This document shows, piece by piece, positions 1 through 62,619 of a DNA stretch of 64,000 bases. A program made the translations under genes and the position numbers. The DNA lies in the IMG/VR virus record IMGVR_UViG_3300028490_000394. One strand, written 5' to 3'. Within the stretch, counting starts at the first letter, position 1; the number at the start of each line of letters is the position of its first letter. The stretch is from an uncultured virus (IMG/VR IMGVR_UViG_3300028490_000394) (lineage: Duplodnaviria > Heunggongvirae > Uroviricota > Caudoviricetes). The notes beneath the pieces were generated by a model. That model was not told where the DNA came from. It saw nothing but the letters and a program-made list of their open reading frames with translations, and ran no database searches.

Positions 1-390
1 TTAGCACTCTCTAAAAATAGCCTTTATTGCCGGTATATCGTCGACCATAGTCAATACCCTATTTCTTTCTATTCCATTTTCATTGATTAAGTATTCATAG
101 AATTTTGTAATTGATTTGTCATTTACTTTTTTCATATCTTTTAAGTATTCATAAACTGAATATGCTATTTCATTATCTGTTTCATGTAGCTCTATACTAA
201 AGTATTTCTCTAGAAAAATATATTGTTTAAACTTTGTGAATACAAATAGTGCTGAGATATGGTTTGGATTTGATTTTCGCCTTACGTATTCTTGTAGCTC
301 TTCAAGTTTTTTTAGAGCGAAGTCTTGATAGTCTTTATCTATACGTTTGTTCTTTGTATGTTTCTTTATAATGTTTTCAAATTTTTTCAA
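1..390 (-). CDS. hypothetical protein
   Basis: 129-aa ORF with stop at 1-3; no recognisable motif. Confidence 0.6.
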   Translation of the reverse strand: MKKFENIIKKHTKNKRIDKDYQDFALKKLEELQEYVRRKSNPNHISALFVFTKFKQYIFLEKYFSIELHETDNEIAYSVYEYLKDMKKVNDKSITKFYEYLINENGIERNRVLTMVDDIPAIKAIFREC

Positions 391-392
391 GT

Positions 393-608
393 TTAATCTT
401 CCTTTCTTAAGTATACCATATGGTGTTCTGTATCATTTGTTTTGTCTCTTTTATTAGATTTGTGTCCGATTACTACTAATGGATCACAAGTTATAGCTCT
501 ATGTAGTATAGGGTTATCTACCTGTGCACCAGCACCTACCATTATAACTTTTGGATTTCTATCTACTCTTGCTTTTAAAGTTTTTAAATGTTCTGTACTT
601 CCTGGCAT
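393..608 (-). CDS. hypothetical protein
   Basis: 71-aa ORF preceded by AAAAGGA and a TATAAT box. Confidence 0.6.
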   Translation of the reverse strand: MPGSTEHLKTLKARVDRNPKVIMVGAGAQVDNPILHRAITCDPLVVIGHKSNKRDKTNDTEHHMVYLRKED

Positions 609-652
609 AAGTATCCTTTTTTCTTTTATTATAGCAGGAGTCTTCTTAAAGT

Positions 653-1093
653 CTATTTAACTACATTGTCGTAGCATACAGCAAGGGTATGATTATCTTT
701 CTGCACTCTATAATTCTAAACTACATTGTCGTAGCATACGATTGGGATAGTTGGAGTCCATTTAATACATGATTCTAAACTACATTGTCGTAGCATACTT
801 GAATTGGCTTTTAAAATTGAATCTCAGCAGATTCTAAACTACATTGTCGTAGCATACCATTACTCTCTTTATGACTAATCTTTATAGCTATTCTAAACTA
901 CATTGTCGTAGCATACCAGTAATCGGATTCTATGCAACTTCTTACTCAATTCTAAACTACATTGTCGTAGCATACTTGTTATTGTCAATAAAGTTATTTT
1001 AGAGGTTATTCTAAACTACATTGTCGTAGCATACCAATATATATAGTTATAGCAGATAGTTATAATATTCTAAACTACATTGTCGTAGCATAC
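653..1093 (-). CRISPR. CRISPR array, type I-F-like: 8 repeats of 27 bp, 7 spacers (one 33 bp, six 32 bp)
   Basis: ATTCTAAACTACATTGTCGTAGCATAC at 713, 772, 831, 890, 949, 1008 and 1067; degenerate trailer copy at 653-679. On the minus strand GTATGCTACGACAATGTAGTTTAGAAT forms a GCTAC/GTAGT hairpin followed by an 8-nt TTTAGAAT handle, like I-F CTTAGAAA. Confidence 0.97.
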
Positions 1094-1163
1094 TATAGAG
1101 AAAATAGTTAAAAGACTGGTACTCTCTTCAATATTAGACATATTAAAGAAAATACCCAAATTT

Positions 1164-1793
1164 TTATTGCTTTCTTTTTCCTTTTTTTACAAAACCATAA
1201 GAATCGACCTTCTCAGCGAGAGAATCGAAGTCTATTATATCAAAATTAGTTCTAGTAAAGAATGTCTTAAAAAAATTTCGGTTTTTATTAGAAGTAAAGG
1301 ATAGATATGGTCCATTATCCTTCATTTTCTTTTGAATGTCTTTAATCACCATATCTATTTCTTTAAATAGTTTATATGACTTAAATATTTGTTTATGTAG
1401 TGGACGTGGATTTGTCCAATTCATTTCTCTCACAAAATCTTGAAAAGAGTTTTCTGATAATTCTTTTTCATTTTTTTGTATAAATTTTAGTAAACTATTT
1501 CTATTTAGAGAAGAACCTTTATTTCTTAATAAACACCCTTCTATTTTTTCTACAGCTTCTTCTTTTATATCTCCCTGGTCTAGCATTAATATATAAACAA
1601 ATGATTCTTTTAATTCTATTAAAAAGTCCTCTTTTACATATATATCTAGTTGTCCACCATGACTTATTCCATTTAGTTTTGGAAGATCTATGAGGTATAA
1701 ATTTTCTTTTGAAGAATTATGTAACTCTTGTACTATTTGATTTATACCTGTATAGCTTTCTTCTAGTATTTTTATTGATATTTTATATATCAT
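1164..1793 (-). CDS. cas6f: divergent Cas6f (Csy4) crRNA endoribonuclease
   Basis: Last gene of the cas operon; N-terminal ELH His, PYLSFTS (compare Csy4 PFVTLRS) and C-terminal DSYGF loop. Confidence 0.7.
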   Translation of the reverse strand: MIYKISIKILEESYTGINQIVQELHNSSKENLYLIDLPKLNGISHGGQLDIYVKEDFLIELKESFVYILMLDQGDIKEEAVEKIEGCLLRNKGSSLNRNSLLKFIQKNEKELSENSFQDFVREMNWTNPRPLHKQIFKSYKLFKEIDMVIKDIQKKMKDNGPYLSFTSNKNRNFFKTFFTRTNFDIIDFDSLAEKVDSYGFVKKGKRKQ

Positions 1794-2881
1794 TATTTAC
1801 CTTTGTTTTGGAAGAGACCGCCTCTTACTAAATTCATATATACATAAAAAAGTTCTTCAGAATTTAATACTGTGCTTATCTCTTTATTTGAGTTTACAGC
1901 TTCTAATAGTTTATCTATCATAGGAAAAACTTTTTGTTCGTCACTTCTAAAGTCCTCAAAAAACTTTGTTGAGGTACCAGTCGGTTCTATTGGAATTACT
2001 AATGGATTTGCGGTATTAACGTTTAAATCGTAGAACGTGTCCACTGTTCTAATCGCATTTGATATTTTTTCTGGAGATAATCCAAAGACTGGTTCTTTAG
2101 TTGATTTTTTAAAAGAAACACATTTATACATTTCTTTTTCTTTATCGTCTTTTTTTGTTGAAAATAATTCTGAAGGATAAATATATGCTCCTCCACCTAT
2201 CATGAAAGTTGTTGTTATATTTAAAGTTAAAGACTCTATAGAATCTTGTTCTTTAACTATATATTTACTAATCAACCCTGATAATCTTTCAAATGATTCA
2301 TTTTCAGAATATAAGTCATTTGCTGCTCCTGTTTCTAAAGATAGTGCAAAAGGTGCTTTTTTATATATACGCGCATTTTCATTAAATTCTAGAGATCCTT
2401 TTTCTATTTCTCCTATTTCATTTACAACTTCAAAATCTATTTTTGTTGTTATTTTTTTAGCAAGATCTCTATTTCTAAACCCTACTGAACCATTAACTAT
2501 ATTATATGCAATTCCCATACCTACTGCACTTGTAACTATTTCATTTTCTTTAAGTTCTGTTATGATTTTGTTGAAGGCTTCTAAACTTGATACTTTTGAT
2601 ACTTTTATTTTATCTGGGATATTATTTACTCCCAGAATTGTTAATTTGTAATTTAACACAAGATCGTCTTGATCATTATTTAAGAAAACTTTTTCTCTAA
2701 TAGGTGTTGGATTTGGACCTTCTGTATCTTTCTTATGTTCTATAGCACCTTTGACCCCTACATTTATTAACTTTTCAGAGGAGATCCCTTTATTTATAAA
2801 TGCACCTTCACTATACTCAATTGCTCTTTTTATACTTAATACTGTTGGTAAATTTTGTAAACCTGTTTTTTCTTTTGCCAT
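1793..2881 (-). CDS. cas7f: Cas7f (Csy3) Cascade backbone
   Basis: LPTVLSIKR, SPEKISNAIRTVDTFY, IPIEPTG and NLVRGGLF match Csy3 motifs; start moved to MAKE after AAGGA. Confidence 0.9.
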   Translation of the reverse strand: MAKEKTGLQNLPTVLSIKRAIEYSEGAFINKGISSEKLINVGVKGAIEHKKDTEGPNPTPIREKVFLNNDQDDLVLNYKLTILGVNNIPDKIKVSKVSSLEAFNKIITELKENEIVTSAVGMGIAYNIVNGSVGFRNRDLAKKITTKIDFEVVNEIGEIEKGSLEFNENARIYKKAPFALSLETGAANDLYSENESFERLSGLISKYIVKEQDSIESLTLNITTTFMIGGGAYIYPSELFSTKKDDKEKEMYKCVSFKKSTKEPVFGLSPEKISNAIRTVDTFYDLNVNTANPLVIPIEPTGTSTKFFEDFRSDEQKVFPMIDKLLEAVNSNKEISTVLNSEELFYVYMNLVRGGLFQNKGK

Positions 2882-2885
2882 TTTT

Positions 2886-3641
2886 TTATCCTTTATGATT
2901 TGTTTCAATAATATATTGATCTTTTATTTTTTTTGTTTTCCATGAGTATTTATCATAGACCTCTTCTGTTAGCTTTTCTTTTAAGAAAGTGAATTTTGTA
3001 AATTTTATAATTGGTTCTACATAGTAATGTTCTTTTTTGTAAATAGAATCTTCTGTATTACCTTTTCCTAGAATTAACTCTCCTACACGAGATAAGGCTT
3101 TTATTCCTTTTGAACCTTTTTTTATTAAACTAGCTTCATAGATCATGTGATCTATTGAATCGAAGTTTGAATCCATTGAATATTGTGTATAACCTATTGG
3201 TCTATATATATTTTTAATGGTCGACTCTATCTGCATTTTATAGTTTATAATATTACCACCTGCAATTCTTAACTTTTTTAATATGTTAAATGCATTTAGT
3301 AAATCTTCAATCTCCAAAAATGTATGGTTCAGTTCAAATATTAGACTTACCTCAATATAACCTCTTGGCATATCTACTAAGCCGTCTGAACGTACTGGAT
3401 CCCTTGATTTCAATGTATGAGTTTTAGATTGTCCCATAAATCCATTTCTTTTATAGGTAATCATAAATCCATTACTTATTGAAAATTCTCCGTCTATTTC
3501 TTTAGAATTATTAATCTTTAATTCAATATTTTTTAATAGTGAGTGATAGACAAATGGACTTGGTAAACCATATAAAAACTCTGTTTGATAGAAATTTACA
3601 TTTACAGCATTTATATCTATTTTTATATAAGTTTTATTCAC
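2886..3641 (-). CDS. cas5f: Cas5f (Csy2)
   Basis: YGLPSP and LRIAGGNI motifs typical of Csy2; operon position. Confidence 0.85.
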   Translation of the reverse strand: MNKTYIKIDINAVNVNFYQTEFLYGLPSPFVYHSLLKNIELKINNSKEIDGEFSISNGFMITYKRNGFMGQSKTHTLKSRDPVRSDGLVDMPRGYIEVSLIFELNHTFLEIEDLLNAFNILKKLRIAGGNIINYKMQIESTIKNIYRPIGYTQYSMDSNFDSIDHMIYEASLIKKGSKGIKALSRVGELILGKGNTEDSIYKKEHYYVEPIIKFTKFTFLKEKLTEEVYDKYSWKTKKIKDQYIIETNHKG

Positions 3642-5292
3642 AACATTCCTCCCTTATTAGTTTATTTAAATCTATATAAAAAAATCTATCCTTTAAGTAA
3701 GATTCTTTAAATTGTATTTCTTCTTTTTCACTATTCACACATTTATTCCAGAATTGATTGGTATATAGAACTTCATTTGTAGAAAATAAATCTTCTAATT
3801 CCTCTTTTTCATATAGTTCAAAAATAATATTTATCTTATTTCTTAATATATTTTTAACTAATTGCTCTAAAGTTTCTGAAACTAAACGCATGTTTTTTTT
3901 GCTATATTGATTTAGTCCACCTATTGATTCATATCTTTTTTGTGCACTACTTAGATTAAAGTGTATACTTTTTAACTCTCTTGTATTCTCCATGCTTGTT
4001 AAAATAATGGATATCAATTCTTTTTCTTTTTGTTCTTTTGTTTCTGAATTATCAAATTTATTTATAAAAATATCAATTTCTTTCCCGTGAGTTAGAGAAG
4101 GTATAAATCCTTTTAATACCTTTCCTTGAGTTGATAGCATGTCTATGTTTTGTTGGTTATTTTTTAATAAATTTGAACCTTCTAAGGTATTTATCCAAAT
4201 ATTTGAAATATTATTCAAATCTTCTTCTGTAAGATACTTTGATAACATATCAAATGCTTTTTTTGAAAATATATATGTTACTTCTTCAACTGCTATTTTT
4301 TTATCTTTGATTAGTTCTAAATCTGTGAATTTATTTTTTTTTGAAAAGTTTTCTATATTTTCTTCAAGATAGTTTTTATTTTTCTTTAATTCATATAAAT
4401 GATAATTTAGTGCACTTAATAAATTCTTATTATAAAAATATATTGCAAGATTAGGAATTGAGGAAAATGTAACAAAACTATTTTCTGAGTCTATAAAGTA
4501 TGTATATTGTTTAAAATCAAAACTATTGTAATTTGGAATTGTGAAATCTTTAGTTTCTTCTTTTGATCTTTCTTTACTAAACTTTTCTAATTCATTTCTT
4601 CTATTTAAAATATCCTCTTTTTTACTTGTATTATAGAAACCTGCCCACATTCTATTTTTTAATATTGAAAAACTCTCTGATAATTTATGTCCAGATAAAA
4701 AGAAATCTTCTGATAGAGAATAACTACCTCTTACCATACTATCTGGCATGCTTTTTAATGGTAGTTTTGAATTACATAATTCTTTACAATCATGGTTATT
4801 ACTTTTTCCAAAAACATGTCTAAAATTTAACAAAGAATTCTCTAGTAAAAGGAAGGACTCACTGTTATGATTGCTATTTTTTGTTGTGAAATTTAATAAA
4901 TCTGGATAATAATTATGTATCACATTTAAGTATTTTTTAAAAAGTAAATCATAAGTTATTTTAAATTTAGTATTTGTTTTAGTTATTTCTACTTTAGCTA
5001 CATTGTCTGGAATGTCTATAAATTCTATATCTTCAATAATTTGATTTAAAATACTTCCTTCATTTGAAGGTATTAACTGACTTTTATTAATAGTTCCTTT
5101 ATATTTATATTGATTATATTCTTCTGAACTTGTTATTGACAGATCTAATATAAATAATTCTATTGAAAAATTTTTGTCTATGTAGACTCTTTTTTTTAAT
5201 AGTTTATATTTGGGATCTTGTAAAAATTTTTCTGCAGCTATAAAGAATACTTCTTCTAAATAATTTATAAAGGGTATCTTTTTTTTACTCAT
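3634..5292 (-). CDS. cas8f: Cas8f (Csy1)-like large subunit, divergent and elongated
   Basis: RHVFGKSNNHD, KQYTYF and NQQNIDML..IPSL align with Csy1 THxxKxxHPD, KQLYF and KPQNISQL..LPSL; operon position. Confidence 0.7.
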   Translation of the reverse strand: MSKKKIPFINYLEEVFFIAAEKFLQDPKYKLLKKRVYIDKNFSIELFILDLSITSSEEYNQYKYKGTINKSQLIPSNEGSILNQIIEDIEFIDIPDNVAKVEITKTNTKFKITYDLLFKKYLNVIHNYYPDLLNFTTKNSNHNSESFLLLENSLLNFRHVFGKSNNHDCKELCNSKLPLKSMPDSMVRGSYSLSEDFFLSGHKLSESFSILKNRMWAGFYNTSKKEDILNRRNELEKFSKERSKEETKDFTIPNYNSFDFKQYTYFIDSENSFVTFSSIPNLAIYFYNKNLLSALNYHLYELKKNKNYLEENIENFSKKNKFTDLELIKDKKIAVEEVTYIFSKKAFDMLSKYLTEEDLNNISNIWINTLEGSNLLKNNQQNIDMLSTQGKVLKGFIPSLTHGKEIDIFINKFDNSETKEQKEKELISIILTSMENTRELKSIHFNLSSAQKRYESIGGLNQYSKKNMRLVSETLEQLVKNILRNKINIIFELYEKEELEDLFSTNEVLYTNQFWNKCVNSEKEEIQFKESYLKDRFFYIDLNKLIREECCE

Positions 5293-7937
5293 TTTTTCTC
5301 CTTTGTTAATTTAAATCCTATATTTGTAAATTCAATTTTTAACATGTATTCTTTTTCCTTATTTATATTTATAGAAAATGTATTAAATCTTTTATATCCA
5401 TTTTCTTTTTTTAGAAATTTATTTTTCCAGGTATTAAAACCTTTAAAAATTTCTCTATTTACATTTTCTATATTCATTCCAATTATTGGACTTTCATTAT
5501 AAACCGTTTCATATTGAAAGGCATGTTCTTTATTTTTTCCTGATTTTATTTTAGGTTCTATATGCATAATATCATTATTATTATCTATATAGAATTGTTG
5601 AGTCCCTTCATTTTGTCTAAAGTCGGTATAAAAACCAAAATTAGATTCTCTTGTATTGTATACTAAAAATCTATTAAAGAAGCTTAACCCTTCAAAATCT
5701 TTTATATATGTGTCTGAAAAATTTAACTTCTTCTCTATTGCTAGGTTTTCATGTACTGCTAATAGATTTTTATTTTCGTCTTGCTCAAATATATGTTTGT
5801 TTGTTGATAAGAATTCTTCTTCTTTTACTAAATCTGATAAATCATGTAAACCTGTGTGACCAACGAATTCATTTCCTTCTTCAAAACCTGGTTGGGAATA
5901 AATTTTAGTTATCCTACCTTGTTGTAAATTAAAGTTTTTATTTAATATTACTATATTTGTATTAGTATTATTTTCTCTATATCTATGTCTATAAACTCTA
6001 CCACTACTTTGTATAATGCTTCTTGTTGACGAAGGTTCTGTTATATGCCAATCAAAATCATGATCTCTACCAACTTCTTCCACTGGGCTTGCTATTACAA
6101 TTACTATGTTATTTTTTTGAATATTATCTTTCATAAATTCTTTTTCATATAATTTATCTTTTTTTCTTTCCAGTAATATATCTAATTGTTTTTCTATATA
6201 AGAACGTTCAAGTAAAGTAAATTGCGCATGATATACTATGATTTTAATATTATGATTATGTAATTCTGGTTCAATGATTTTGATTAATGAAAATATCTCT
6301 TTTACATGTGCAATTCTTATTAACCCTGCTGAAAATTTATTTCCTTTGCTATCTACTTCATTATTGTTTTCATGTAGTTCAAGTGCGCATTGTAATATAT
6401 CTGTTTTTTTAAGATCTTTTATCTTTGTATTATTTTTTGACACCGTGTTCTTAATCACAATACTAGTAGCTTCTTTCCATGAAATTTCAAAATCCATTAT
6501 ATTTAGTCTTTTATTTGTAAAATCTGAAATATATAAGCAATTGATTTCTTTATATGTATTCTTTGCCTTTATACCATTCATAAATGCCTCATAATAGGCT
6601 TTTGCTAGTGCTGGGTATGGTGTCGCAGTACTTAGTATAAGATTGACTCCATAATAGCCTGCTAGAAAGATTAAATTTAAAACTGATTTTTGGTCTTCTA
6701 AACCTAGTTCGTCTACTTCGTCAATTATAAGGTCTGAAGTTATCAACCTTATAGTTGGATTAATATGGTTAGACCTTCTATAATCTGTGGCTTTAATCAT
6801 GTAATCAATTGTTGAAATTAAAATAGGTGTATCTAAAAAGTTCGCGACATTTCTTGAAAAATAGTCCTTATCTTTAAAATTTGACTGCCTGTCTATTGAT
6901 AATTCTGGCTCGTCTACTTTTTCTTCTTTATTATATGTTTGATATATATCTGTAATTGATTTAGAACCAATTAAAACATTTATATCTTCCTCTTTAAATA
7001 TCTTTAAATTTGTGTATGCAGTACCTGTTTGTAAAGTTAAAGTTCTTAAACCTTGTATTACTGTTAATCTATTCTTTTTGTTTATTAAACTACTATATTT
7101 TAATCCAAACCTTGTTTTCCCTGAACCTGTAGAGGACGATAGAAATGTTAATGTGGGGATATCTTTATTTATATTATCTTTTGCAAACTGTATTGACTTT
7201 TCTTGCCATTTAAATTTATCTATTTCAGTGGTTTCATGTATTATAGAGTCTAAATTTGTTTCTGACCATTTACTAAATGGATTTTTATTTTGAAAAAATA
7301 TTTCTTCTGCAAAGTTTATTTTAGAATTTACTGCTGCAATATGTTCTGAATATTTTTGATAATTATTATTTAAATCTTTTGCACTTAAATCTTTTTTATA
7401 ATTTTTATGATTATTATTGAATTTCACAGTTGATCCTATATGATCTGCTAGGATTAAAGAATTTCGGAGATCTATAATCTCATTAATTGGGATTGAAATG
7501 TTTGCTATTTTTTTTAAATCATTTTTTGCCTTATCGAAAATTTCTTTTGATATGATTCTAAAATCTTTTATTTTATCGTCCGTAAGGTTATGTAAATAAA
7601 CAAAACTAGTGTTTACAGGTATCGAACCTATATTTGATATTTCTGGAAGTCTATGGTGTGTTCCCATTATATATAGTAAGTTATATATATTTGGAGTATT
7701 TTTTCTTATTTCTTCAGAAATATATGCTGTCTTTTTTACTCTATTCTTTATAAATAATAAATAAGATTCCTCATTATATTCTTTATTTTTTATGATATAT
7801 TCAAAAATTAAAATTGTTAAATAGGAGTGATTTACTATACTTTTATATTTCTTATCTTTAAGTATTTTCTGAAAATGAAATGTATTTTTACCTAAATCAT
7901 GATACTTAGCTATAAAACTTAATATTTCTTTTCTCAA
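5289..7937 (-). CDS. cas3: type I-F Cas3 HD nuclease-helicase without the N-terminal Cas2 domain
   Basis: HDLGK, THH, LADH..SEH, STGSGKT, GLRTLTLQTG, DEVDE, EVGRDHDFDW and QSSGRVYRHR; likely start is TTG at 7937 after AAGGA, since the ORF-track start at 7994 lies inside a CRISPR spacer. Confidence 0.93.
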   Translation of the reverse strand: MRKEILSFIAKYHDLGKNTFHFQKILKDKKYKSIVNHSYLTILIFEYIIKNKEYNEESYLLFIKNRVKKTAYISEEIRKNTPNIYNLLYIMGTHHRLPEISNIGSIPVNTSFVYLHNLTDDKIKDFRIISKEIFDKAKNDLKKIANISIPINEIIDLRNSLILADHIGSTVKFNNNHKNYKKDLSAKDLNNNYQKYSEHIAAVNSKINFAEEIFFQNKNPFSKWSETNLDSIIHETTEIDKFKWQEKSIQFAKDNINKDIPTLTFLSSSTGSGKTRFGLKYSSLINKKNRLTVIQGLRTLTLQTGTAYTNLKIFKEEDINVLIGSKSITDIYQTYNKEEKVDEPELSIDRQSNFKDKDYFSRNVANFLDTPILISTIDYMIKATDYRRSNHINPTIRLITSDLIIDEVDELGLEDQKSVLNLIFLAGYYGVNLILSTATPYPALAKAYYEAFMNGIKAKNTYKEINCLYISDFTNKRLNIMDFEISWKEATSIVIKNTVSKNNTKIKDLKKTDILQCALELHENNNEVDSKGNKFSAGLIRIAHVKEIFSLIKIIEPELHNHNIKIIVYHAQFTLLERSYIEKQLDILLERKKDKLYEKEFMKDNIQKNNIVIVIASPVEEVGRDHDFDWHITEPSSTRSIIQSSGRVYRHRYRENNTNTNIVILNKNFNLQQGRITKIYSQPGFEEGNEFVGHTGLHDLSDLVKEEEFLSTNKHIFEQDENKNLLAVHENLAIEKKLNFSDTYIKDFEGLSFFNRFLVYNTRESNFGFYTDFRQNEGTQQFYIDNNNDIMHIEPKIKSGKNKEHAFQYETVYNESPIIGMNIENVNREIFKGFNTWKNKFLKKENGYKRFNTFSININKEKEYMLKIEFTNIGFKLTKEKK

Positions 7938-7955
7938 TAAAAATTCCTTTTTGTG

Positions 7956-8041
7956 TTTTTTTACTACATTGTCGTAGTATACCATGTGAAACATATCAAC
8001 TTAGCCATAGCTTAATTCTAAACTACATTGTCGTAGTGTTA
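7956..8041 (-). CRISPR. repeat-spacer-repeat mini-array in the cas3 leader
   Basis: Variant repeats at 7956-7982 (TTTTTTTACTACATTGTCGTAGTATAC) and 8015-8041 (ATTCTAAACTACATTGTCGTAGTGTTA) flank a spacer of exactly 32 bp (7983-8014). Confidence 0.9.
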
Positions 8042-8216
8042 TTTTTAAACAATACTATAATTTTACTTAAAGTATATTTAAAACTAATAGCTAATAATTT
8101 AGTATGTAGTAAAAAACAACATATTATTGCATTAAGTTGAATATTATCTTACCTTGACAAACTGTTAGTACAGAAATCAATAAATATATGATATACTTTA
8201 TTCAAAAAGGATTACC

Positions 8217-9113
8217 ATGATAATGAAGGAATTTATACCTAAACAGGCCAGCTCTACCTCTTTTAAGAAAGGTTATGAAAATGAAAAGGACGCCGCATAT
8301 TATATTGATTTTTCTTTCAAAAATACTAAAAATTCTATTGTCTTGCATGATCTTAATTTAGAGTTTGAAGGACAAAAAGCTCAAATAGACCATTTACTTA
8401 TTTCTAGACTTGGAATTTATGTTCTTGAGAGTAAGTTCTTCAGTGGAGATATTATTATTGATTCCCATGGAGCTTGGACTGTTAAATATGGAGACAAGGA
8501 ATATAGTATCCCTTCTCCTATTGAACAGAATGATCGACATATAATGATTGTTGAAAAAATACTAAAAAAGTCCGGACTGTTTCCTTCCGTCTTAGGTCTA
8601 TCTATGCTTCCTAAAATACATAATTACATTCTACTGTCTACACAAACTAAACTTCCTGTTGAATGTCCAAAAGAAGTTATTAAACAAGATACTTTACTGA
8701 ATACTATTATTTCTCGAGGTGAATCTGATATCTTAGGGGCAATTGTTGCAATATCTAAAATTATTAGTTCTGACACTGCCATTGCAGTTGCTAATAAGCT
8801 ATTATCTTTTAACAGAGAGCCAGTACAAAAAATATCTAAAACTAAGGTAAAAATTAAAGTACCAGAGCCTGACGTATCGATAGTTGAAGAAGTACTTGAA
8901 CCAGTTACTGTTACAAAGCGTACTTTTGAAGAGCTAAAAGCAATTCGTACGGACTTATCTAAGACTTTTAAGGTTAAGGCTTATTATATCTTCTCAGATA
9001 AGACTCTTCAAGAAATATTAGAAAAGGATCCTTTAAATAAAGAAGATATGCTTAAGATACATGGTGTTGGTGAAGTTAAATTTGAAAAATATGGAAAATT
9101 CTTTTTAAGATAA
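8217..9113 (+). CDS. NERD nuclease-related domain plus C-terminal HRDC domain protein
   Basis: AQIDHLLISRLGIYVLESK and SPIEQNDRH (NERD); AYYIFSDKTL..IHGVGEVKFEKYG (HRDC). Confidence 0.85.
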   Translation: MIMKEFIPKQASSTSFKKGYENEKDAAYYIDFSFKNTKNSIVLHDLNLEFEGQKAQIDHLLISRLGIYVLESKFFSGDIIIDSHGAWTVKYGDKEYSIPSPIEQNDRHIMIVEKILKKSGLFPSVLGLSMLPKIHNYILLSTQTKLPVECPKEVIKQDTLLNTIISRGESDILGAIVAISKIISSDTAIAVANKLLSFNREPVQKISKTKVKIKVPEPDVSIVEEVLEPVTVTKRTFEELKAIRTDLSKTFKVKAYYIFSDKTLQEILEKDPLNKEDMLKIHGVGEVKFEKYGKFFLR

Positions 9114-9159
9114 GCTGTCTACAAGTATACTTATTGTATAATGCGTACAAAGGAGTCTC

Positions 9160-9498
9160 ATGTCAAAAATTTTAGGAGATTGTCCTATCTGTGACGGTCA
9201 CATTATTCAACGTGAAAATTCATATGGTTGTACAAATGCTAATTGGCAGCATGACGACCATTTTGACGAACTACAAAATACCGGGTGTCGATATTCTATT
9301 CATAAAGAAAGTTTAAAGCGCTATGGCAAGAGAAAGGTCTCTGCTACTGATATTCAGAAACTTTTCAAAAATGGTTTCTTTACTGCAAAGCTGAGAAGTA
9401 GATTTAAAAAAGAATACTATAAATATGTCATGGTAAATGACGAGTATGGTATTGAAGTTGATTTCAACACAGAAGTTGAAGAAAAGGATATTAAATGA
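9160..9498 (+). CDS. stand-alone topoisomerase C-terminal repeat / zinc-ribbon protein
   Basis: LGDCPICDG..YGCTN..GCRYSI..KLFKNG..LRSRFKKEY pattern. Confidence 0.65.
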   Translation: MSKILGDCPICDGHIIQRENSYGCTNANWQHDDHFDELQNTGCRYSIHKESLKRYGKRKVSATDIQKLFKNGFFTAKLRSRFKKEYYKYVMVNDEYGIEVDFNTEVEEKDIK

Positions 9499-9896
9499 AA
9501 AAAGCATTTATTGCTACACCTATGAGTGCATTCTCCAAAGAAGAGTATGCTGAACTATCAAAAACAATTAAGGAGATTCAACTTGAATCTGATTATGAAA
9601 TCTTTGCTGAGATAACTACTGTTACTCTGGATACGTTCTTACCACCTTCAGAAGCTTTAGATAACGATTTGGCAGCTATTCGCCAGTCAGACGTATTCAT
9701 AGCTATATATCCTAAACAAGTCCTTACAAGTCTATTCTTAGAGCTTGGTTATGCTATGGCAAATAAGAAAGAAATATTTATTTTTGTCAAAGATAAAAAA
9801 GCACTTCCTTTTCTTCTATTAGATCACCCTGGTGTTATTGAGTATAAAGATAATAAGCAGCTTAACGAATTTATTATGGGAGTACTATCTGTATGA
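9495..9896 (+). CDS. nucleoside 2-deoxyribosyltransferase / N-glycosidase family protein
   Basis: FIATPM, DLAAIRQSDVFIA and ELGYAMANKK motifs. Confidence 0.8.
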   Translation: MKKAFIATPMSAFSKEEYAELSKTIKEIQLESDYEIFAEITTVTLDTFLPPSEALDNDLAAIRQSDVFIAIYPKQVLTSLFLELGYAMANKKEIFIFVKDKKALPFLLLDHPGVIEYKDNKQLNEFIMGVLSV

Positions 9897-10991: not shown

Positions 10992-11444
10992 ATGGAAGTA
11001 ATATATACTAGAGATTATAAAGGTAAAGAGGCAGAATCAATTGATACTGTCGCAGACGGGTTTGCACAAAACTTTCTTATCCCAAGAGGAATTGCAATTG
11101 TTGCTACAGAGGCTAATATCGAAGCCCTAAAGGTTAAGAAAGATAATGAAACCAAAGAATATAGAGCTGCTATGATTGAACGGACTACAAATAAAAAGAT
11201 TCTTGAAGAAAAGACTATTTCTATTGTAAGAAAAGGATCTACGTCTTCTGGGCAAATGATCGGTGCTGTTACTCATGCTAATATTGCCGAAGCTATTGAA
11301 AATGTAGTTGGTATTCCAGCTAATAAAAAGAAGCTACATGCTGAAACGATCAAAAAGTTTGGTCTTTATAATATTGATTATGACCTTGGTGAAGGTATTG
11401 TTGCTGTAGTTAAGCTTCATGTTGCACAAGAGGGAGTTTCTTAA
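10992..11444 (+). CDS. rplI: 50S ribosomal protein bL9
   Basis: VADGFAQNFLIPRGIA and C-terminal GAVT..IAEAI..IKKFGLY; full length. Confidence 0.9.
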   Translation: MEVIYTRDYKGKEAESIDTVADGFAQNFLIPRGIAIVATEANIEALKVKKDNETKEYRAAMIERTTNKKILEEKTISIVRKGSTSSGQMIGAVTHANIAEAIENVVGIPANKKKLHAETIKKFGLYNIDYDLGEGIVAVVKLHVAQEGVS

Positions 11445-12034
11445 TGAGTATTCTAATTAAAAAAGAGATTAAAGCTGCTCGTAAGTCTGGCGCAATTATT
11501 ATTGAACCATACACTAAAAAAAATGTAAGTGTAAATTCTGTTGACGCTACACTTTCTAAGTATTTACTTACTTATGAACCAGTTGACGTTATGTTTTCTG
11601 ACGAGTTTGATAGTTATATTGTTGTACGTAAGAAGCCAACTGCATTTATTGATATGAGAAAGAAGAATCCTGTTTATCAACTTGAGATACCTGAAGACGG
11701 TATAATTCTTATTCCTGGTATTCTTTATCTTGGTTCTACAGTTGAACAAATTGGTTCTACAGTCTTCGTTCCTATGTATGAGGGTCGTAGTTCTATGGCG
11801 CGCCTTGGTATTCAAAGTCATATCTCTGCAGGATTTGGTGATATGGGGTTTGTTTCTAATTGGACTCTTGAAATTACTGTTGTTCACCCAGTTAAATTTT
11901 ATCCTGGTGTACGTATAGGACAAGTATATTTTCATAAGACTGCAGTTTCTGCTAAGGGCAAAGATCTTTATCATGGAAAATACAATAAACAGAGTGGTCC
12001 ACAATCTTCAAAGTCTTACAAAGATTTTGAATAA
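11444..12034 (+). CDS. dcd: dCTP deaminase
   Basis: EGRSSMARLGI, AGFGDMGF..WTLEI, GVRIGQ and YHGKY. Confidence 0.9.
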   Translation: MSILIKKEIKAARKSGAIIIEPYTKKNVSVNSVDATLSKYLLTYEPVDVMFSDEFDSYIVVRKKPTAFIDMRKKNPVYQLEIPEDGIILIPGILYLGSTVEQIGSTVFVPMYEGRSSMARLGIQSHISAGFGDMGFVSNWTLEITVVHPVKFYPGVRIGQVYFHKTAVSAKGKDLYHGKYNKQSGPQSSKSYKDFE

Positions 12035-15508: not shown

Positions 15509-16747
15509 ATGAAAAATTTAAAAGCTGACTTTGTTATCGGGCTCCAATTCGGAGACGAAGGTAAAGGTAAAGTGATTGACTCTTTATTGAGTTCAAGTGT
15601 TAAGTATGACGGCGTCGTCAGAGGTAATGGTGCTGATAATGCAGGACACCAAATTGTTATTGGAGATAAAAAATTTACTTTACATTCTCTTCCTAGTGGA
15701 GTTCTTCAACCTGTCGTTAATATTATCGGCCCCGGTTGTGTTGTTAACCCTAATTCAATAGAAAAAGAAATTGATAATCTTGGTGAACACTTTATTGGTA
15801 CTCTTGTTATTTCTGAACGTTGCCCTCTTATTATGAAAAGACATGTTACTGAGGATCATGCTTTAGAAGCTCAGAAGGGTGAAAATTCCGTTGGTACTAC
15901 ATTAAAAGGTGTTGGCCCAGCTTATGCCTCTCTTAAGAACAGAACGGCGGTATTCGCCGGTGATTTACATGACATACCTGCTGCTTTAGAACGTTTCTTA
16001 TATCTTGAAGATAATGAGTTTGAAGATCTGAAAAAAGAGCTTACTATTTATGCGTCTAAAATTGGACAATATGTTAAAAGTATTAAACCTGTATTACGTG
16101 AGTTAAAACATATCCTTGTAGAGGGTGCACAAGCTACTATGCTTGATAATCTTTATGGTACTTACCCTTATGTTACGAGTTCTTCAACAACTGTTCCTGG
16201 TTTGCTTATGGGAATTGGTTTAAACCATACTCATGTTGGAAAAGTTTATGGTGTTATGAAACCTTACTCCGTCCGTGTTGGTAATGGACCTTTTGTTACT
16301 GAAATGGAACCTGATATGGCTCATAGAGTTAGAGTTCTTGGTAATGAAGTTGGCTCTACTACCGGTAGAGATAGACGTTGTGGGTGGACAGATTTTGTGC
16401 AATTACAAGAAGCTGTTGTTCTTAATGGTGTTACAGATCTTTGTCTTATGAAATCTGACGTTTTAGATTCTTTTGACGAAGTTCAATTCTGTACTGCATA
16501 TAAACTAGAACCAGGTGTTACTGAACTAGTCGAATACTTATCTCATGTTCCTTTTAGTTATAAAAATATAGAACCTTATTATGACACTTTTATGGTTTGG
16601 GATACTGAACTTTTTGGTAAAACTTTTACTAGAGATACTCTACCTATTCAACTCTCTACTATTATTACTTTTATTGAGCAGAAACTTGACGTTCCTGTTA
16701 CTTTCTTTTCTACAGGTCCAGAAAGAGACCAGACAAGCTTTCTTTAA
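15509..16747 (+). CDS. purA: adenylosuccinate synthetase
   Basis: QFGDEGKGK, NAGH, EGAQATMLD, YPYVTSS and TTGRDRRCGW. Confidence 0.93.
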   Translation: MKNLKADFVIGLQFGDEGKGKVIDSLLSSSVKYDGVVRGNGADNAGHQIVIGDKKFTLHSLPSGVLQPVVNIIGPGCVVNPNSIEKEIDNLGEHFIGTLVISERCPLIMKRHVTEDHALEAQKGENSVGTTLKGVGPAYASLKNRTAVFAGDLHDIPAALERFLYLEDNEFEDLKKELTIYASKIGQYVKSIKPVLRELKHILVEGAQATMLDNLYGTYPYVTSSSTTVPGLLMGIGLNHTHVGKVYGVMKPYSVRVGNGPFVTEMEPDMAHRVRVLGNEVGSTTGRDRRCGWTDFVQLQEAVVLNGVTDLCLMKSDVLDSFDEVQFCTAYKLEPGVTELVEYLSHVPFSYKNIEPYYDTFMVWDTELFGKTFTRDTLPIQLSTIITFIEQKLDVPVTFFSTGPERDQTSFL

Positions 16748-17037: not shown

Positions 17038-17898
17038 ATGTCGTATAAAACTGCAAAACTATGGTTAATTATTGCTGGATTACTTATATTTTCTCCATAC
17101 ATTTTAAAATATGTTTCTTCATTAAATTTTAATATCTCTAAAACTGAAACTAAAGATATCAGCTATTCTGGTACTGATACTCTTAATGCAGCTATGGGTC
17201 TTACTAAGCCTGACTCAAACCCCTCATTTTTTTCTACCATGCTTGAATCTAATGTTAATAAACAATACCAAGAAATTGTTCCTTGCTTGAATGATTCTTC
17301 TTGTACTGCTTTTTGTATGGTGATCGATATAAATTATAAATATAGTAATGATAATTATAGTTCTACATATACTAATTTTTATGAAATCTTGACAAAAAGA
17401 AATCATATATCTTCAGACTCTAGACCTTTTTTGATTTTAAATGGTAGAGATTATACTTTTGATAATTGCTTCAAGACTTATAATCCTGACGTTCGGAGCG
17501 TTGTCCGTAAAATTGCAAAGACAGAACGTCCTAGCTCTAGAACTTCAAAAAAATCTTTTCATTTTGATAAATTGAGATATTTTGAAAATTCTGGAAAGTG
17601 TTTATTTGATATCGGTAATGCTATAAGTGAAGGGGCTCCTGTTTATTGTTATGATACTACCTTTAATGTTGTTCTACAAAAATTTATTCCTACTAATAAG
17701 TCTAAACTTAATGGTTTGGTTGATTTTTTCTCTGCTAGTACAGAATACTTCATTCAAGACCTTGAACATAATCTTACATTCAATGTTGTAAATTGCTCTT
17801 CTGGTTTAGATCCTGAATATGAGTTTCGAAGTAATAAGGTTCTTTCTAATTCAACTATTTTAAATGCTACAAAAAGGTTATCAAATGAAATCAAATAG
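17038..17898 (+). CDS. membrane-anchored Cys-rich exported protein (paralog 1 of 4)
   Basis: N-terminal TM; PCL..C..C, FYE, LNGRDYTFDNC and FNVVNC. Confidence 0.75.
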   Translation: MSYKTAKLWLIIAGLLIFSPYILKYVSSLNFNISKTETKDISYSGTDTLNAAMGLTKPDSNPSFFSTMLESNVNKQYQEIVPCLNDSSCTAFCMVIDINYKYSNDNYSSTYTNFYEILTKRNHISSDSRPFLILNGRDYTFDNCFKTYNPDVRSVVRKIAKTERPSSRTSKKSFHFDKLRYFENSGKCLFDIGNAISEGAPVYCYDTTFNVVLQKFIPTNKSKLNGLVDFFSASTEYFIQDLEHNLTFNVVNCSSGLDPEYEFRSNKVLSNSTILNATKRLSNEIK

Positions 17899-18691
17899 AA
17901 CGTACGACCCAAACAAACAATCTAATACTGAAAAGGTTCTTTTATCTTTATCTGGTATCTTTTTTTCCGCTTTACTTATTGGATTGTTTTTTTCAATATT
18001 TGCAACCATGAGTGGAATTAAATCTAAGAATTTAAATGAAGCTTATGCCTCTATGACACCTTGTCTTGAGGACCCTAATTGTCAAGCACTATGTATGCCT
18101 TATGAAGTTTTTTACTATAGTGTTAATCCTAAAGGTCCTAGTACAATTGTTTTATCATATGCTTATTTCTATGAAGAATTAACTAAAGATAATCATACTT
18201 ACAAAGAAGGCTCTCATATAGTTAATCTTAATGGTCATGATTATTCTTTTGATAATTGTTATGTTACTGGTTCTCAACCTTTACCTTCTGTGGCTACTGA
18301 TATCACTGAAAATGGACGTTCTCCTATTAAAGGCGGTACAAATCCATTCCATGGTCATGTTAAAGAACTAACTATTGCTAGGGAACGTTATTTTGATATA
18401 AAAAAACTGTATACAAAAGAATCTTCTGAAATAGTATGTCGTTACACTAGAGAGAATCATGATCTTTATTATGGAAATGGGTATGTTAATCTAAGTAAAA
18501 ATGTTGACTTCTTTGTTAATGGATATGAACATTTTCTATATGATCGTGATCAAAATCTATACTTTAACGTTATGAACTGTTTTGAAGACAGTACTAGAGA
18601 TTATTCTTCTTTGACGCTTGTGTCTAATGTTCTTGGCCCTGTAAGTACTATTAAACATTCTATTTTAAGTAACGAAACGCCTCATGAATAA
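17885..18691 (+). CDS. membrane-anchored Cys-rich exported protein (paralog 2 of 4)
   Basis: Same motifs, FNVMNC. Confidence 0.75.
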   Translation: MKSNRTYDPNKQSNTEKVLLSLSGIFFSALLIGLFFSIFATMSGIKSKNLNEAYASMTPCLEDPNCQALCMPYEVFYYSVNPKGPSTIVLSYAYFYEELTKDNHTYKEGSHIVNLNGHDYSFDNCYVTGSQPLPSVATDITENGRSPIKGGTNPFHGHVKELTIARERYFDIKKLYTKESSEIVCRYTRENHDLYYGNGYVNLSKNVDFFVNGYEHFLYDRDQNLYFNVMNCFEDSTRDYSSLTLVSNVLGPVSTIKHSILSNETPHE

Positions 18692-19535
18692 GCATTTTAA
18701 AAGATATGGAATGTTTCTATTTGTGATAGTCTATGCTATTTTTGGTTATTTTTGGAATGATTATATAACTGAGGTTCGAGACACTGAATTTAATAAGTCT
18801 TTCTTAAAAGTTGAACCTTGTATTGAAGAGAATAATTGTACTATTCTTTGTCTTCCATATGAAATTTCAGATTATTTATATTCTGCAAGAGGTGGTCCTA
18901 CTCCTATACTTGGTTCGGGGTATTTCTATGATATAGTTAATTCCAGTAATTATACTAGAGAAAATAAGTCTGGATCTATCTTTGTAAATAAACATAAATA
19001 TAGTTTTGGACAATGTCATATTACCTACAGAGAAGATTTTGATAATGTGGTTAAAGAAATATCAGATAATCCAAAGAAAAAGAAAAAGATCTTTTATCTT
19101 GAATCTATTTCTGATAAGTTTCAGTACTTTACCAAAAGTAGGAATCGATTAAACAATATCATAGAATCGTATACTAATAGGAATGCAGATATACTATGTT
19201 ATTCAAAGACTTTTAGAAATGGGATCCCATTTGACCAAGACCTAGGTCTAAGTTATATTAAGCTTGGAAAGGACGTTAAATTCTTCTCTAATAGTGTTGA
19301 ATACCTTCTTACTGATAATGATACAAATGAAACATTTAACGTTATGAACTGTTTCGCTGCTAATCGTTATCACCCGGGGGATTTAGAATTGGTCTTTAAT
19401 GTCCTTGATAAAAATGATAAATCGTCTCTTACTGAACTTAGGACTACTAAAATTTATAGTTCTACGTATGAAAATGCGTTAGTTCCTACTGTTCACGACA
19501 ACTTGAAAGTTCAATACTTTAAGGAGTCTAAGTGA
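18684..19535 (+). CDS. membrane-anchored Cys-rich exported protein (paralog 3 of 4)
   Basis: Same motifs, FNVMNC. Confidence 0.75.
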   Translation: MNKHFKRYGMFLFVIVYAIFGYFWNDYITEVRDTEFNKSFLKVEPCIEENNCTILCLPYEISDYLYSARGGPTPILGSGYFYDIVNSSNYTRENKSGSIFVNKHKYSFGQCHITYREDFDNVVKEISDNPKKKKKIFYLESISDKFQYFTKSRNRLNNIIESYTNRNADILCYSKTFRNGIPFDQDLGLSYIKLGKDVKFFSNSVEYLLTDNDTNETFNVMNCFAANRYHPGDLELVFNVLDKNDKSSLTELRTTKIYSSTYENALVPTVHDNLKVQYFKESK

Positions 19536-20329
19536 AAAAACGTATTGTCTTATTTATAGTTTTAGTTATTAGTATCTTTGGGTTAATACTTCTCAATCAT
19601 TTCACTAAGGTCTATGAAGCTAAGCTATCTAGTTTAAAAGAATGTATTGCTGAGAAGGATTGTAAGGTTGCTTGTGCTCCTATGGAGGTCTCTCAAAATA
19701 TATTATCTAAGAACTTTTATTCTTATGGGTTTTTCTACGAAGAAATGAATGCGTCTAATTATGAAACTACTGGTTCTTTTTATGAAGTACTAGTAAATAA
19801 GCATAGATATGTTCTTGATCAATGTTTTGAGGTCTATAAACCTGAGTCTTTCACTAATGTTATTCTTGATCTATCTTTGATAGGTTTTAATCCAGAGTAT
19901 CGTTACCATATTAACTTGTCTTCACCTTTTTTTGACGCAGCTAAAGAAGAGTTTCAATACTTTACTAAGATTGAAAACCGTGCCTTGCATATTAGACGTA
20001 ATATTAACTCTAAAAAGGATTTTCATGTTCGTTGTTACTCTAGTAAACCTGAAAAAGGCCTTACTTATGATAAAGGTTTAGAATTGTATTATTTAGATCT
20101 CGATAATAACGTTTCTCTTCACTCTAATGCGCTTAATCTATATGCTTATTCTAATGGTATGATTTTGAATGTTATGAACTGTTTCGCAGCTGATAAAAAT
20201 TCTACTATAGATATTGAATTTAGTGATCTCAAGTATCCTTTTGAAGAGTTAAATAATTCTAAACTATATGATACTTTAATTGAGCCCTCTACATTTAAAA
20301 ATGTTCTATTTAAAGGTTTTTCTGAATGA
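19532..20329 (+). CDS. membrane-anchored Cys-rich exported protein (paralog 4 of 4)
   Basis: Same motifs, LNVMNC. Confidence 0.75.
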   Translation: MKKRIVLFIVLVISIFGLILLNHFTKVYEAKLSSLKECIAEKDCKVACAPMEVSQNILSKNFYSYGFFYEEMNASNYETTGSFYEVLVNKHRYVLDQCFEVYKPESFTNVILDLSLIGFNPEYRYHINLSSPFFDAAKEEFQYFTKIENRALHIRRNINSKKDFHVRCYSSKPEKGLTYDKGLELYYLDLDNNVSLHSNALNLYAYSNGMILNVMNCFAADKNSTIDIEFSDLKYPFEELNNSKLYDTLIEPSTFKNVLFKGFSE

Positions 20330-34429: not shown

Positions 34430-35197
34430 ATGAAAATTACTGTTATTGGCTCTGGTGGAGCCTTCGACTTACAAACTAACTCTAGCTTCTTGATTAGTCA
34501 AGACGATACTATGGAAGATAGTCTTCTATTTGATTGTGGTATTAATGTATTCGCAAAACTAAAAAAACTAGGTGACAAAGTTATTGGAAGTATTTCTAAT
34601 ATCTATATCTCACATTTGGACGACGATCATGTCGGTTCTTTACGTACACTTGTTTATTACAGACATTATGTTCTTGGATTACATACTAATGTTTATTATC
34701 CAGATAATATTGCTTTACAAGATTTTATTTGGAGTAATGGAGGTTCTTTAAATAAAAAGTTCTCTGGTGGTAAACTTGTTAAAGCTGACATGATTAGACT
34801 TTTTAAAATACCTACTCAAATGAGTCATTTACAGGGAGCTGAAATTGGCGATTTCACTGTCTTACCTGTAATTGGGTATCACCATGTACCTGTTTGTGGC
34901 TTATACGTTGAATGTGGGGATTCTGTTTGCTATATCTCTGGTGATACTAAAGCTTATGCACCTATTGAACATTTGGTTAGAGAATTAACTTATACTAAAT
35001 ATAAATTGGACGTCTTCAAAACTAGAGATCCTCGAGTTATGATTTTTCATGATTGGTCTACTTATAATGACGCCTCTGTTAATGGTCATGCATGTTTAGA
35101 AGATATCGAAGAACATTATTCTTTTGATTTTATTAGAGCTATGAATGGTTATCACAATGACATTAATGAACTTGAAGATAAAGTTTTTCAGTTTTAG
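34430..35197 (+). CDS. metallo-beta-lactamase-fold hydrolase (RNase Z / Apyc1-like)
   Basis: GSGGAF, FDCG, SHLDDDH, H, SGDT, FHD..HA..YH. Confidence 0.8.
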   Translation: MKITVIGSGGAFDLQTNSSFLISQDDTMEDSLLFDCGINVFAKLKKLGDKVIGSISNIYISHLDDDHVGSLRTLVYYRHYVLGLHTNVYYPDNIALQDFIWSNGGSLNKKFSGGKLVKADMIRLFKIPTQMSHLQGAEIGDFTVLPVIGYHHVPVCGLYVECGDSVCYISGDTKAYAPIEHLVRELTYTKYKLDVFKTRDPRVMIFHDWSTYNDASVNGHACLEDIEEHYSFDFIRAMNGYHNDINELEDKVFQF

Positions 35198-54655: not shown

Positions 54656-55483
54656 TTACGCTAGTTGTTCTGAATACACTTCTTCTAGTGCAGTATAAAG
54701 ATCTTCTGATTCTATTAATGCTGCCATTGCTACATTATCTTCTACTTTCTTACCTTCATAGTTCCACTCTTTAATGTACGTACCTTCTTTATATCCATGG
54801 TCTTGTCTAAATTGATTTAATACGCTTTTACCGTTGTATAGTTTTACTATATCTAATGAAACTATTTCTGTAGTTATGTGTCTAAACAAAGCAATCACAT
54901 TAAAGACTAGAGCGTCGTATTCTTCTGGGAAGAACGCATTTGTTTTATTTGATCTTAATCTTGATAACATTACTGATAAAACAGTTAACTCTTCAAACGC
55001 TCTGAGTTCTTTATTTATGTTATCTGCATTTGGGTGCATTTTAGCTACTGATTCTTTTGCAAAATTATTATCGTCTTCTGCTTGAAATATATTCAATATG
55101 TGATTGGCTGTTGATTCTCTTAATCCTGCATTCCACATTTCTGACGGTGTCATTACTTTTTCCGGGCTATTTACGTCTAGTTCTTTGCTTTCTATTTCTT
55201 TATATGCAAGATCAAACATGTTTTCTATTACTAGAGACATAATGAAGTGCCAAATGTCTACTGTCTCAATGTGAACATTTGCCATATCTACTTTTTGATC
55301 AATACCTTTCCAGTGCTTCCAAGGATAACTATCCATTAATTCGATAGTTTCCATGTATATTGTTCTTGGCCAATTGATTTGTTTCCCGGACTCTGTCATA
55401 CCTAGGATCCAATCCTCTCCTGCTATACCTGCATTTAATTTAAATTGTTTATCTAGCATTTCTATTAATATATCTTTTTTCAT
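54656..55483 (-). CDS. dut: dimeric (all-alpha) dUTPase
   Basis: ELMDSYPWKHWK, IETVDIWHF, KSVLNQFRQDHGYKEGTY and EDN; Campylobacter-type. Confidence 0.88.
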   Translation of the reverse strand: MKKDILIEMLDKQFKLNAGIAGEDWILGMTESGKQINWPRTIYMETIELMDSYPWKHWKGIDQKVDMANVHIETVDIWHFIMSLVIENMFDLAYKEIESKELDVNSPEKVMTPSEMWNAGLRESTANHILNIFQAEDDNNFAKESVAKMHPNADNINKELRAFEELTVLSVMLSRLRSNKTNAFFPEEYDALVFNVIALFRHITTEIVSLDIVKLYNGKSVLNQFRQDHGYKEGTYIKEWNYEGKKVEDNVAMAALIESEDLYTALEEVYSEQLA

Positions 55484-62610: not shown

Positions 62611-62619
62611 ACATTTTTT

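Follow-up and report, generated by a model that had tools for sequence, protein, structure and literature searches.

A one-spacer CRISPR array ahead of cas3 in a type I-F-like phage locus, probably a minimal second array

The stretch of DNA considered here, hereafter called the window, comprises 64,000 nucleotides (nt) from the uncultured virus IMGVR_UViG_3300028490_000394 (Caudoviricetes) of the IMG/VR collection and carries a type I-F-like cas operon together with a main CRISPR array. A far smaller array, called here the mini-array, stands at the other end of the operon, just ahead of cas3; a distance of 6.9 kb separates it from the main array with its 8 repeats. It lies on the minus strand and is made up of two repeats around a single spacer (Table 1), with matching direct repeats that have the hairpin of a type I-F array, the handle being kept in the upstream one, and with a spacer of the right length. 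It is interpreted here, with moderate confidence, as a minimal and probably functional second array, in other words an ordinary upstream array that has shrunk until it gives a single CRISPR RNA (crRNA) and that is co-transcribed with cas3. Its apparent counterpart in the nearest relative, a locus designated L064, is a multi-spacer array that is also placed directly upstream of, and co-oriented with, a cas2/3 gene.

Ten copies of the repeat's hairpin core, CTACGACAATGTAGT, are present in the 64 kb, all of them on the minus strand, eight in the main array (660-1088) and two in the mini-array (7963-7977 and 8022-8036), where 0.11 copies are expected by chance and none of 100 shuffles contained at least 10. 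The two mini repeats are 59 nt apart from start to start, which equals the spacing of the main array, and the length of the spacer (32 nt) fits that of the main-array spacers (32 nt in six of them, 33 nt in the seventh). About 22 of the 27 positions of each mini repeat equal the main-array consensus, and the hairpin core is identical in both. In the upstream repeat, positions 6-27 are the same as in the 27-nt consensus and four of the first five positions are changed, the 5′ end reading TAACA instead of GTATG. In the downstream repeat, positions 1-20 are identical to the consensus except for a G-to-A change at position 5 (G5A), and four of the last seven positions are changed by the A-run; its hairpin folds with -5.5 kcal/mol (z -2.24). 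A first-pass annotation, made from the sequence and its open reading frames (ORFs) only, had described two variant repeats around an exact 32-nt spacer, a handle retained upstream and, downstream, a hairpin followed by an A-run that takes the place of the handle and leads into AAGGA-N7-TTG. All of this is borne out: the spacer letters at 7983-8014 agree, the handle TTTAGAAT is intact in the upstream repeat, and the coordinates of the downstream elements are in accordance with the description.

Position 5 is A in both mini repeats and G in the main array and in L064. The first-pass annotation had taken this shared change for the conversion of a G-U pair of the stem into an A-U pair that preserves the structure. 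The change is indeed common to both repeats, but it is one-sided rather than compensatory, and the pair falls just outside the CUAC/GUAG stem, the base of which is the expected place of the Cas6f cut. The shared derived A5 fits a pair of repeats that descends from another array, one that had a repeat variant of its own. The changes are also unequally distributed over the two repeats. When the repeat positions needed for a crRNA are defined as the hairpin and handle of the upstream repeat plus the first 19 nt of the downstream repeat, 1 of the 41 needed positions is changed (the shared G5A) versus 8 of the 13 that are not needed (Fisher p = 1e-5). Such a pattern would be the expected outcome of selection for one functional crRNA, an argument of moderate weight only.

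The order of transcription is mini-array, cas3, an ORF of 552 amino acids (aa), cas5f, cas7f, an ORF of 209 aa and the main array, and cas3 overlaps the gene that follows it. The effector genes beside the mini-array are type I-F-like and include those for Cas3f, Cas5f and Cas7f, the gene for Cas6f being recognized through distant homology only. The 552-aa protein has no family match in Pfam, NCBIfam or PADLOC, and a word-index search of 5.8 billion proteins retrieved only the protein itself. The 209-aa protein has no direct match in Pfam, NCBIfam, PADLOC or PDB sequences and no usable match in an Atlas search; pairwise BLASTP against two candidate Cas6f proteins was not significant, and its single-sequence AlphaFold model is unusable (pLDDT, the predicted local distance difference test, of 39). 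An exhaustive HMMER search found five distant homologues, one of which passes the Pfam Cas_Csy4 cut-off (30.4 bits versus 25), with two more scoring below it. When these homologues and the 209-aa protein, six sequences in all, are combined into a profile, it matches one built from 15 Cas6f ORFs of other type I-F loci (96% probability, E-value 4.5e-9, 156 columns) in an alignment that includes the conserved N-terminal histidine, and a custom Cas6f hidden Markov model matches the 209-aa protein with an E-value of 7e-4. Because of the HMMER homologues and the profile-profile match, the protein is treated as a putative divergent Cas6f. A Pfam scan and tblastn with the Cas1 and the Cas2 domain of L064 revealed neither Cas1 nor Cas2 in the window. 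The mini-array stands, as the first-pass annotation had pointed out, at the spot where canonical type I-F loci hold cas1 and the cas2 domain.

Relatives were surveyed in 89 type I-F loci, namely the best 80 of the 251 I-F cas3 loci of a metagenome profile scan and nine loci from IMG/VR. A recognizable cas3 frame is present in 73 of the 89, and 60 of these have at least 400 nt of upstream sequence. The repeat family of the window is common to only one of the surveyed loci, L064, whose repeat differs from that of the window only in the loop and the final base and whose Cas3 is also the best match in the survey (38% identity). The L064 array comprises at least 10 repeats (it meets the contig end), is co-oriented with cas2/3 and ends 35 nt before the cas2/3 ATG; its terminal repeat likewise has a degenerate handle. 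The presence of cas1 and then a gene for a flagellin of Campylobacterota type downstream of cas2/3 makes L064 probably chromosomal. The first four spacers of this array (1-240), the first of which is cut by the contig end, are identical, reflecting either a repeat-spacer unit duplicated in tandem or an assembly artefact where the contig ends. The first-pass annotation had proposed that homologous loci be checked for the same layout; L064 has a long ordinary array there instead.

The four nearest Cas3 relatives (37-38% identity) all carry an N-terminal Cas2 domain of about 90 aa, which is missing from the window Cas3. Since the relatives keep this domain and tblastn finds no remnant of it, the loss of adaptation parts is, as judged by these comparisons, derived in the window lineage. 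A tblastn alignment with L064 reaches position 7967, within the downstream repeat, and the peptides look alike; this weakly suggests that the A-run may come from the coding sequence of the Cas2-HD linker at a deletion junction. Against it, 292 of 500 and 425 of 1000 shuffles scored at least equally well in the DNA comparison, and the E-value of the Cas2-domain match is 0.19. A second public contig codes for a Cas3 identical to that of the window, down to the N-terminal residues that the downstream repeat specifies.

Of the 60 loci with sufficient upstream sequence, 5 have an array that ends no more than 300 nt from the cas3 frame, and four of these five are viral contigs. In L061, an array of 17 repeats is co-oriented with cas2/3 and ends 24 nt before its ATG; in L059, six partly decayed repeats are co-oriented with cas2/3; L060 and L062 have arrays that point away from cas3. 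Given the co-oriented arrays in L059, L061 and L064, an array that abuts cas3 and reads towards it is a recurring type I-F architecture, of which the window presents the smallest version. Between the csy genes and the array of L061, a 150-aa ORF (8196-8648, plus strand) matches only the C-terminal half of Cas1f and looks like a truncated adaptation gene of a viral type I-F locus. The exact repeat was not found elsewhere in IMG/VR or in metagenome contigs, its 15-nt core gave 54 single-copy chance matches and no array in IMG/VR, a 20-nt repeat pattern gave none in metagenome contigs, and a gapped pattern gave none in IMG/VR. One match of the gapped repeat in genome contigs was dismissed as chance, because it falls at the end of a coding region in a metagenome-assembled genome of Acidobacteriota. 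Single-protein searches of IMG/VR with Cas3 and Cas7f found no close relatives, and megablast of window positions 1-9200 against phages and plasmids gave no match.

The leader of cas3 is compact, with about 18 nt between the mini-array hairpin and the Shine-Dalgarno/TTG start of cas3 (hairpin end at 7964, AAGGA at 7949-7945, TTG at 7937). The cas3 frame is open further upstream, through the downstream repeat and into the spacer, to an ATG at 7985 and another at 7994, and public gene calls start cas3 at these codons (898 and 901 aa). However, homology with the Cas3 of relatives starts at the TTG, and a ribosome-binding site is present only before the TTG. The same AAGGA precedes the neighbour gene at 8217 and a small ORF after the main array. 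On the other side of the mini-array, a candidate promoter (8054-8082) would begin transcription a few bases upstream of it. Before processing, the leader of 121 nt is predicted to fold with an unpaired Shine-Dalgarno and start region and with a stability that does not exceed that of shuffled sequences (z -1.02); the model gives no sign of a structural switch.

From these genes and repeats we infer transcription of the mini-array, its processing, loading and use for interference. A promoter upstream of 8041 would transcribe the mini-array and cas3, and probably the csy genes too. The Cas6f-like protein (1164-1793) would bind the two hairpins and cut at the 3′ base of each stem, setting free one canonical crRNA with the UUUAGAAU handle, the 32-nt spacer and a 19-nt hairpin. 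This crRNA would be loaded into the Csy complex of the phage and guide interference by Cas3 against a target that might be a rival phage, some other mobile element or the host. The same cut would also, as a side effect, give the cas3 mRNA a 26-nt leader in which the ribosome-binding site is kept. The cut in the downstream repeat is predicted to fall between 7964 and 7963, the cut site being at the base of the stem, presumably as in Csy4 of Pseudomonas aeruginosa. The predicted boundaries of the 59-nt crRNA follow from the repeats and from the processing rules of type I-F systems. Since a Cas6f-family gene is present, one crRNA of about 59 nt and a cut 26 nt before the TTG are a reasonable prediction.

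Table 1. Coordinates of the mini-array, the cas3 leader, the cas operon and the main array in the window (positions are those of the window; aa, amino acids; nt, nucleotides)
Feature	Coordinates	Strand	Details
Candidate sigma-70-like promoter	8054..8082	-	TTTAAA, 17 nt, TATAGT; 9/12 consensus matches
Upstream variant repeat	8015..8041	-	hairpin and 8-nt handle TTTAGAAT intact; hairpin fold -4.0 kcal/mol
Single spacer	7983..8014	-	32 nt, canonical length
Downstream (terminal) variant repeat	7956..7982	-	GTATACTACGACAATGTAGT, then A-run replacing the handle
Predicted mature crRNA	7964..8022	-	59 nt: 8-nt handle, 32-nt spacer, 19-nt hairpin tail
Shine-Dalgarno and cas3 start	7935..7949	-	AAGGA (7945-7949), 7-nt gap, TTG (7937-7935)
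cas3, type I-F, HD nuclease and helicase, without N-terminal Cas2 domain	5289..7937	-	PADLOC Cas3f E 3e-112
552-aa protein at large-subunit (Cas8f/Csy1) position	3634..5292	-	
Cas5f (Csy2)	2886..3641	-	PADLOC Cas5f E 1e-9; Pfam Csy2 22.5 bits (cut-off 25)
Cas7f (Csy3)	1793..2908	-	Pfam Cas_Csy3 100 bits; PADLOC Cas7f E 6e-29
Putative divergent Cas6f (Csy4)-like endoribonuclease, 209 aa	1164..1793	-	distant homology
Main CRISPR array	653..1093	-	8 repeats of 27 nt, 7 spacers; terminal handle degenerate

No target was recognized for the spacer. The first-pass annotation had reported no convincing target in the window, which full, seed-only and protospacer-adjacent motif (PAM)-flanked searches confirm, no full or near-full match being found in the 64 kb. 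A seed scan of both strands gave, at best, two sites in which 11 of 12 seed positions match, the exception being position 3 in each case, with CA and GT as PAMs, compared with about two expected by chance according to a rough hand estimate made without a computed control. Among the 3062 CC-flanked sites of the window, the best matches 9 of 12 seed positions. Exact 10-mers number 6 versus 6.8 ± 5.0 expected, with none in the region upstream of cas3. A comparison of all spacers of the window and of L064 with the window and 144 loci returned only self matches and chance fragments of at most 22 nt, and the spacer with any base allowed at every sixth position was not found in IMG/VR. The mini-array gave eight records in a phage collection (best E-value 0.7, none covering 80% of the query) and no match in a plasmid collection; the seven spacers of the main array gave no match in the phage collection. 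A spacer directed at a type I-F cas gene was considered and rejected, as no match occurs in any of the 89 I-F loci. CRISPR-associated transposons (Tn7-like, type I-F3) have tnsA/B/C and tniQ and no Cas3. The privileged guide of this kind that the first-pass annotation had evoked finds no support, with Cas3 present and no transposase-family match by Pfam in 80 window ORFs.

Canonical type I-F1 loci are said to have two flanking arrays in some hosts. The window is like them in that arrays stand at both ends of its cas operon, and an array that abuts cas2/3 is seen in L064, L059 and L061; it is unlike them in that no cas1 or Cas2 domain was found in the window and in that the upstream array is cut to the minimum of one crRNA. 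Virus-borne mini-arrays are usually described as dependent on host Cas proteins, whereas the window phage has its own effector genes and a mini-array attached to cas3. Viral mini-arrays of one or two spacers are proposed to serve inter-virus competition (PMC7099407), solitary repeat units or Racr RNAs are proposed as RNA anti-CRISPRs (PMC10651486), and CreR regulatory RNAs (bioRxiv 10.1101/2023.03.10.532045) and viral crlRNAs (10.1101/2024.10.29.618823) are treated. Passages of Al-Shayeb et al. (2020, PMC7162821) describe the CRISPR systems of huge phages as almost all devoid of Cas1, Cas2 and Cas4, with compact arrays (median of six repeats) whose spacers target other phages or host genes. 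The window resembles these systems, as no Cas1 or Cas2 was found in it and its arrays have 8 and 2 repeats; type I-F is unmentioned in the main text of that paper, and the passages considered here contain no single-spacer array in a cas3 leader, a layout at which no literature search was aimed.

The closest precedent is found in Shmakov et al. (2023, PMC10120712). According to the passages of this paper drawn upon here, loci of types I-F1, I-E and I-B commonly contain mini-arrays of two repeats, repeat-like sequences occur in 25-29% of the untranslated regions that flank cas3, and degradation typically affects the downstream repeat and spares the upstream one. The spacers show partial matches to the cas8 promoter beside a CC PAM, one I-F1 case with a spacer shorter than the regular ones having been validated experimentally, and in an Acinetobacter I-F1 cluster about 71% of the loci have a mini-array and the rest have long arrays at the same place (PMC10120712). 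The window mini-array is like those described there in its two repeats and one spacer, in its location in an untranslated region beside a type I-F cas3 and in its degraded downstream repeat. Unlike those, which lie between cas3 and cas8f and read away from cas3, it is upstream of cas3 and co-oriented with it, its spacer is of full length, and the searches of the window gave no self-target. The layout in the window is not special: I-F1 mini-arrays beside cas3 are on record (PMC10120712), the array of L064 has the same placement, and 5 of the 60 surveyed loci have an array that abuts cas3.

Several points weigh against a functional second array. The substitution pattern also has a neutral explanation, by history alone, hence the moderate weight given to it: a degenerate 3′ end is usual in terminal repeats (for example in the main array and in L064), and if a deletion or rearrangement ended within a repeat, the first one would lose part of its 5′ end. 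The 552-aa candidate for the large subunit belongs to no family, so that completeness of the effector is not established, and cas1/cas2 could sit elsewhere, as the window covers 64 kb and the contig 431 kb. The AT-rich region of the candidate promoter shows no excess of promoter-like sites (6 versus 6.6 ± 2.1 expected). The survey offers one informative relative, L064, and the sequence upstream of its array is off the contig, which makes positional homology plausible, not proven. The searches gave a protospacer neither for the mini-array spacer nor for any of the seven main-array spacers, so that a role in interference is putative. It is nevertheless unlikely that the mini-array is a non-functional relic, that is, debris of array shrinkage or of the deletion of the Cas2 domain, unused and intact only because it is recent. 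The missing target would suit a relic, as would the fact that, without spacer acquisition, shrinkage is the only course open to an array; a first repeat truncated at its 5′ end and a last one replaced at its 3′ end are to be expected from deletion end-points, mini-arrays adjacent to type III loci were judged degraded and non-functional in passages of Shmakov et al. (PMC10120712), and the second public contig with identical Cas3 offers no divergence for a test of selection. However, among the 41 positions relevant to the crRNA only the shared G5A is altered, the spacer has exactly the right length, the derived base common to both repeats shows that the pair is old enough to differ from the main array, and, if the mini-array is transcribed with cas3 and Cas6f works, a crRNA would arise regardless.

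Quite unlikely is a regulatory role, such as that of a CreA/CreR-type guide put forward in the first-pass annotation, in which a cr-like RNA (CreR/crlRNA) would pair partially, through its seed, with a PAM-flanked promoter of the cas operon or of a phage or host gene, and the Csy complex would repress transcription without cleavage. An intact upstream and a degraded downstream repeat beside cas3 are the described format of I-F1, I-E and I-B mini-arrays, and the target may lie outside the sequence scanned, which covered 64 of 431 kb and no host genome. Nevertheless, no seed-anchored, PAM-flanked or at least 10-bp match rises above chance in the window, where the best CC-flanked site and the 10-mers remain at the values given above. 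The spacer is of full length, whereas the validated I-F1 regulatory spacer is shorter than regular; the overlap of cas3 with the next gene leaves no internal promoter of the kind targeted in I-F1 to control Cascade; and the sole related locus of the survey, L064, holds a long ordinary array. As no target was found, the regulatory guide is unsupported and the feedback loop through Cas6f that went with it is speculation. Control in cis, by which cutting or binding of Cas6f at the terminal hairpin would alter the stability or translation of the cas3 mRNA and couple Cas3 to the level of Cas6f/Csy, could coexist with any other explanation and is in itself improbable. The geometry it calls for is real, from the hairpin end to the TTG, and close coupling recurs in L061 (24-nt gap) and L064 (35-nt gap), compatible with an arrangement that is either tolerated or useful. 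However, the fold predicted for the leader leaves the Shine-Dalgarno and start region unpaired even before a cut, so that cleavage would not free a sequestered ribosome site, and the fact that the layout recurs with long arrays points to simple read-through more than to a specialized switch: where long ordinary arrays precede cas3 (L064, L059 and L061), cutting by Cas6f ahead of cas3 would follow from the layout regardless of regulation. Little credence is likewise given to a single mini-array/cas3 transcript from which Cas6f would both release a privileged guide and set the fate of the cas3 message, kept by selection in a phage that acquires no spacers. Were this the case, the supply of the nuclease would be tied to free Cas6f/Csy, an autoregulation at the protein level unlike that by the promoter-targeting CreR.

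The genomic context is that of a large phage. The window proteins are recorded on a contig of 431,381 bp; the G+C content of the window is 31% and that of the cas locus about 25%; 45 of 69 window ORFs scanned have no Pfam match, and no capsid, terminase or other structural gene was seen in the window. The tRNA cluster, the L9 gene, the genes of nucleotide metabolism, the predominance of ORFans and the 431-kb contig make the window look like part of a huge phage. The tRNA cluster (62532-63119, minus strand) has six genes, four for tRNA-Met (CAT), one for tRNA-Val (TAC) and one for tRNA-Trp (CCA), and the homologue of ribosomal protein L9 (10992-11444, plus strand) is full length with both Pfam domains. 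An adenylosuccinate-synthetase-like gene (15509-16747, plus strand) is PurZ-like and matches phrog_1211 ('2-aminooxy adenylosuccinate synthetase') with an E-value of 9e-90, and genes at 11444-12034, 9495-9896 and 54656-55483 code for dCTP-deaminase-like, nucleoside 2-deoxyribosyltransferase-like and dUTPase_2 proteins; together, these genes hint that the phage may have modified DNA bases. Other genes code for ClpP, RNase H and a Suv3-like helicase. Divergent from the mini-array and cas3, the gene at 8217-9113 (plus strand) codes for a protein with NERD and HRDC domains whose C-terminus resembles DpdF (PADLOC). Four consecutive ORFs at 17038-20329 (plus strand; 286, 275, 283 and 265 aa) have no family match; at least the first two share a repeated segment, and they may be tandem paralogues. 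A metallo-beta-lactamase-fold protein (34430-35197, plus strand) has a sub-threshold match to the anti-Pycsar protein Apyc1 (33 bits, cut-off 50), and two small proteins (56092-56538 and 63388-63831, both minus strand) have a prokaryotic N-terminal methylation (type IV pilin-like) motif.

To the extent that it is evidenced, the mechanism is ordinary, and the value of the locus is descriptive rather than conceptual. It illustrates how a type I-F system shrinks after the loss of adaptation, with the Cas2 domain gone and the upstream array at the smallest unit that encodes a crRNA. If the guide is functional, it marks the one target that has been kept physically coupled to the nuclease gene of a giant phage, and the identity of this target would reveal whom the phage fights.

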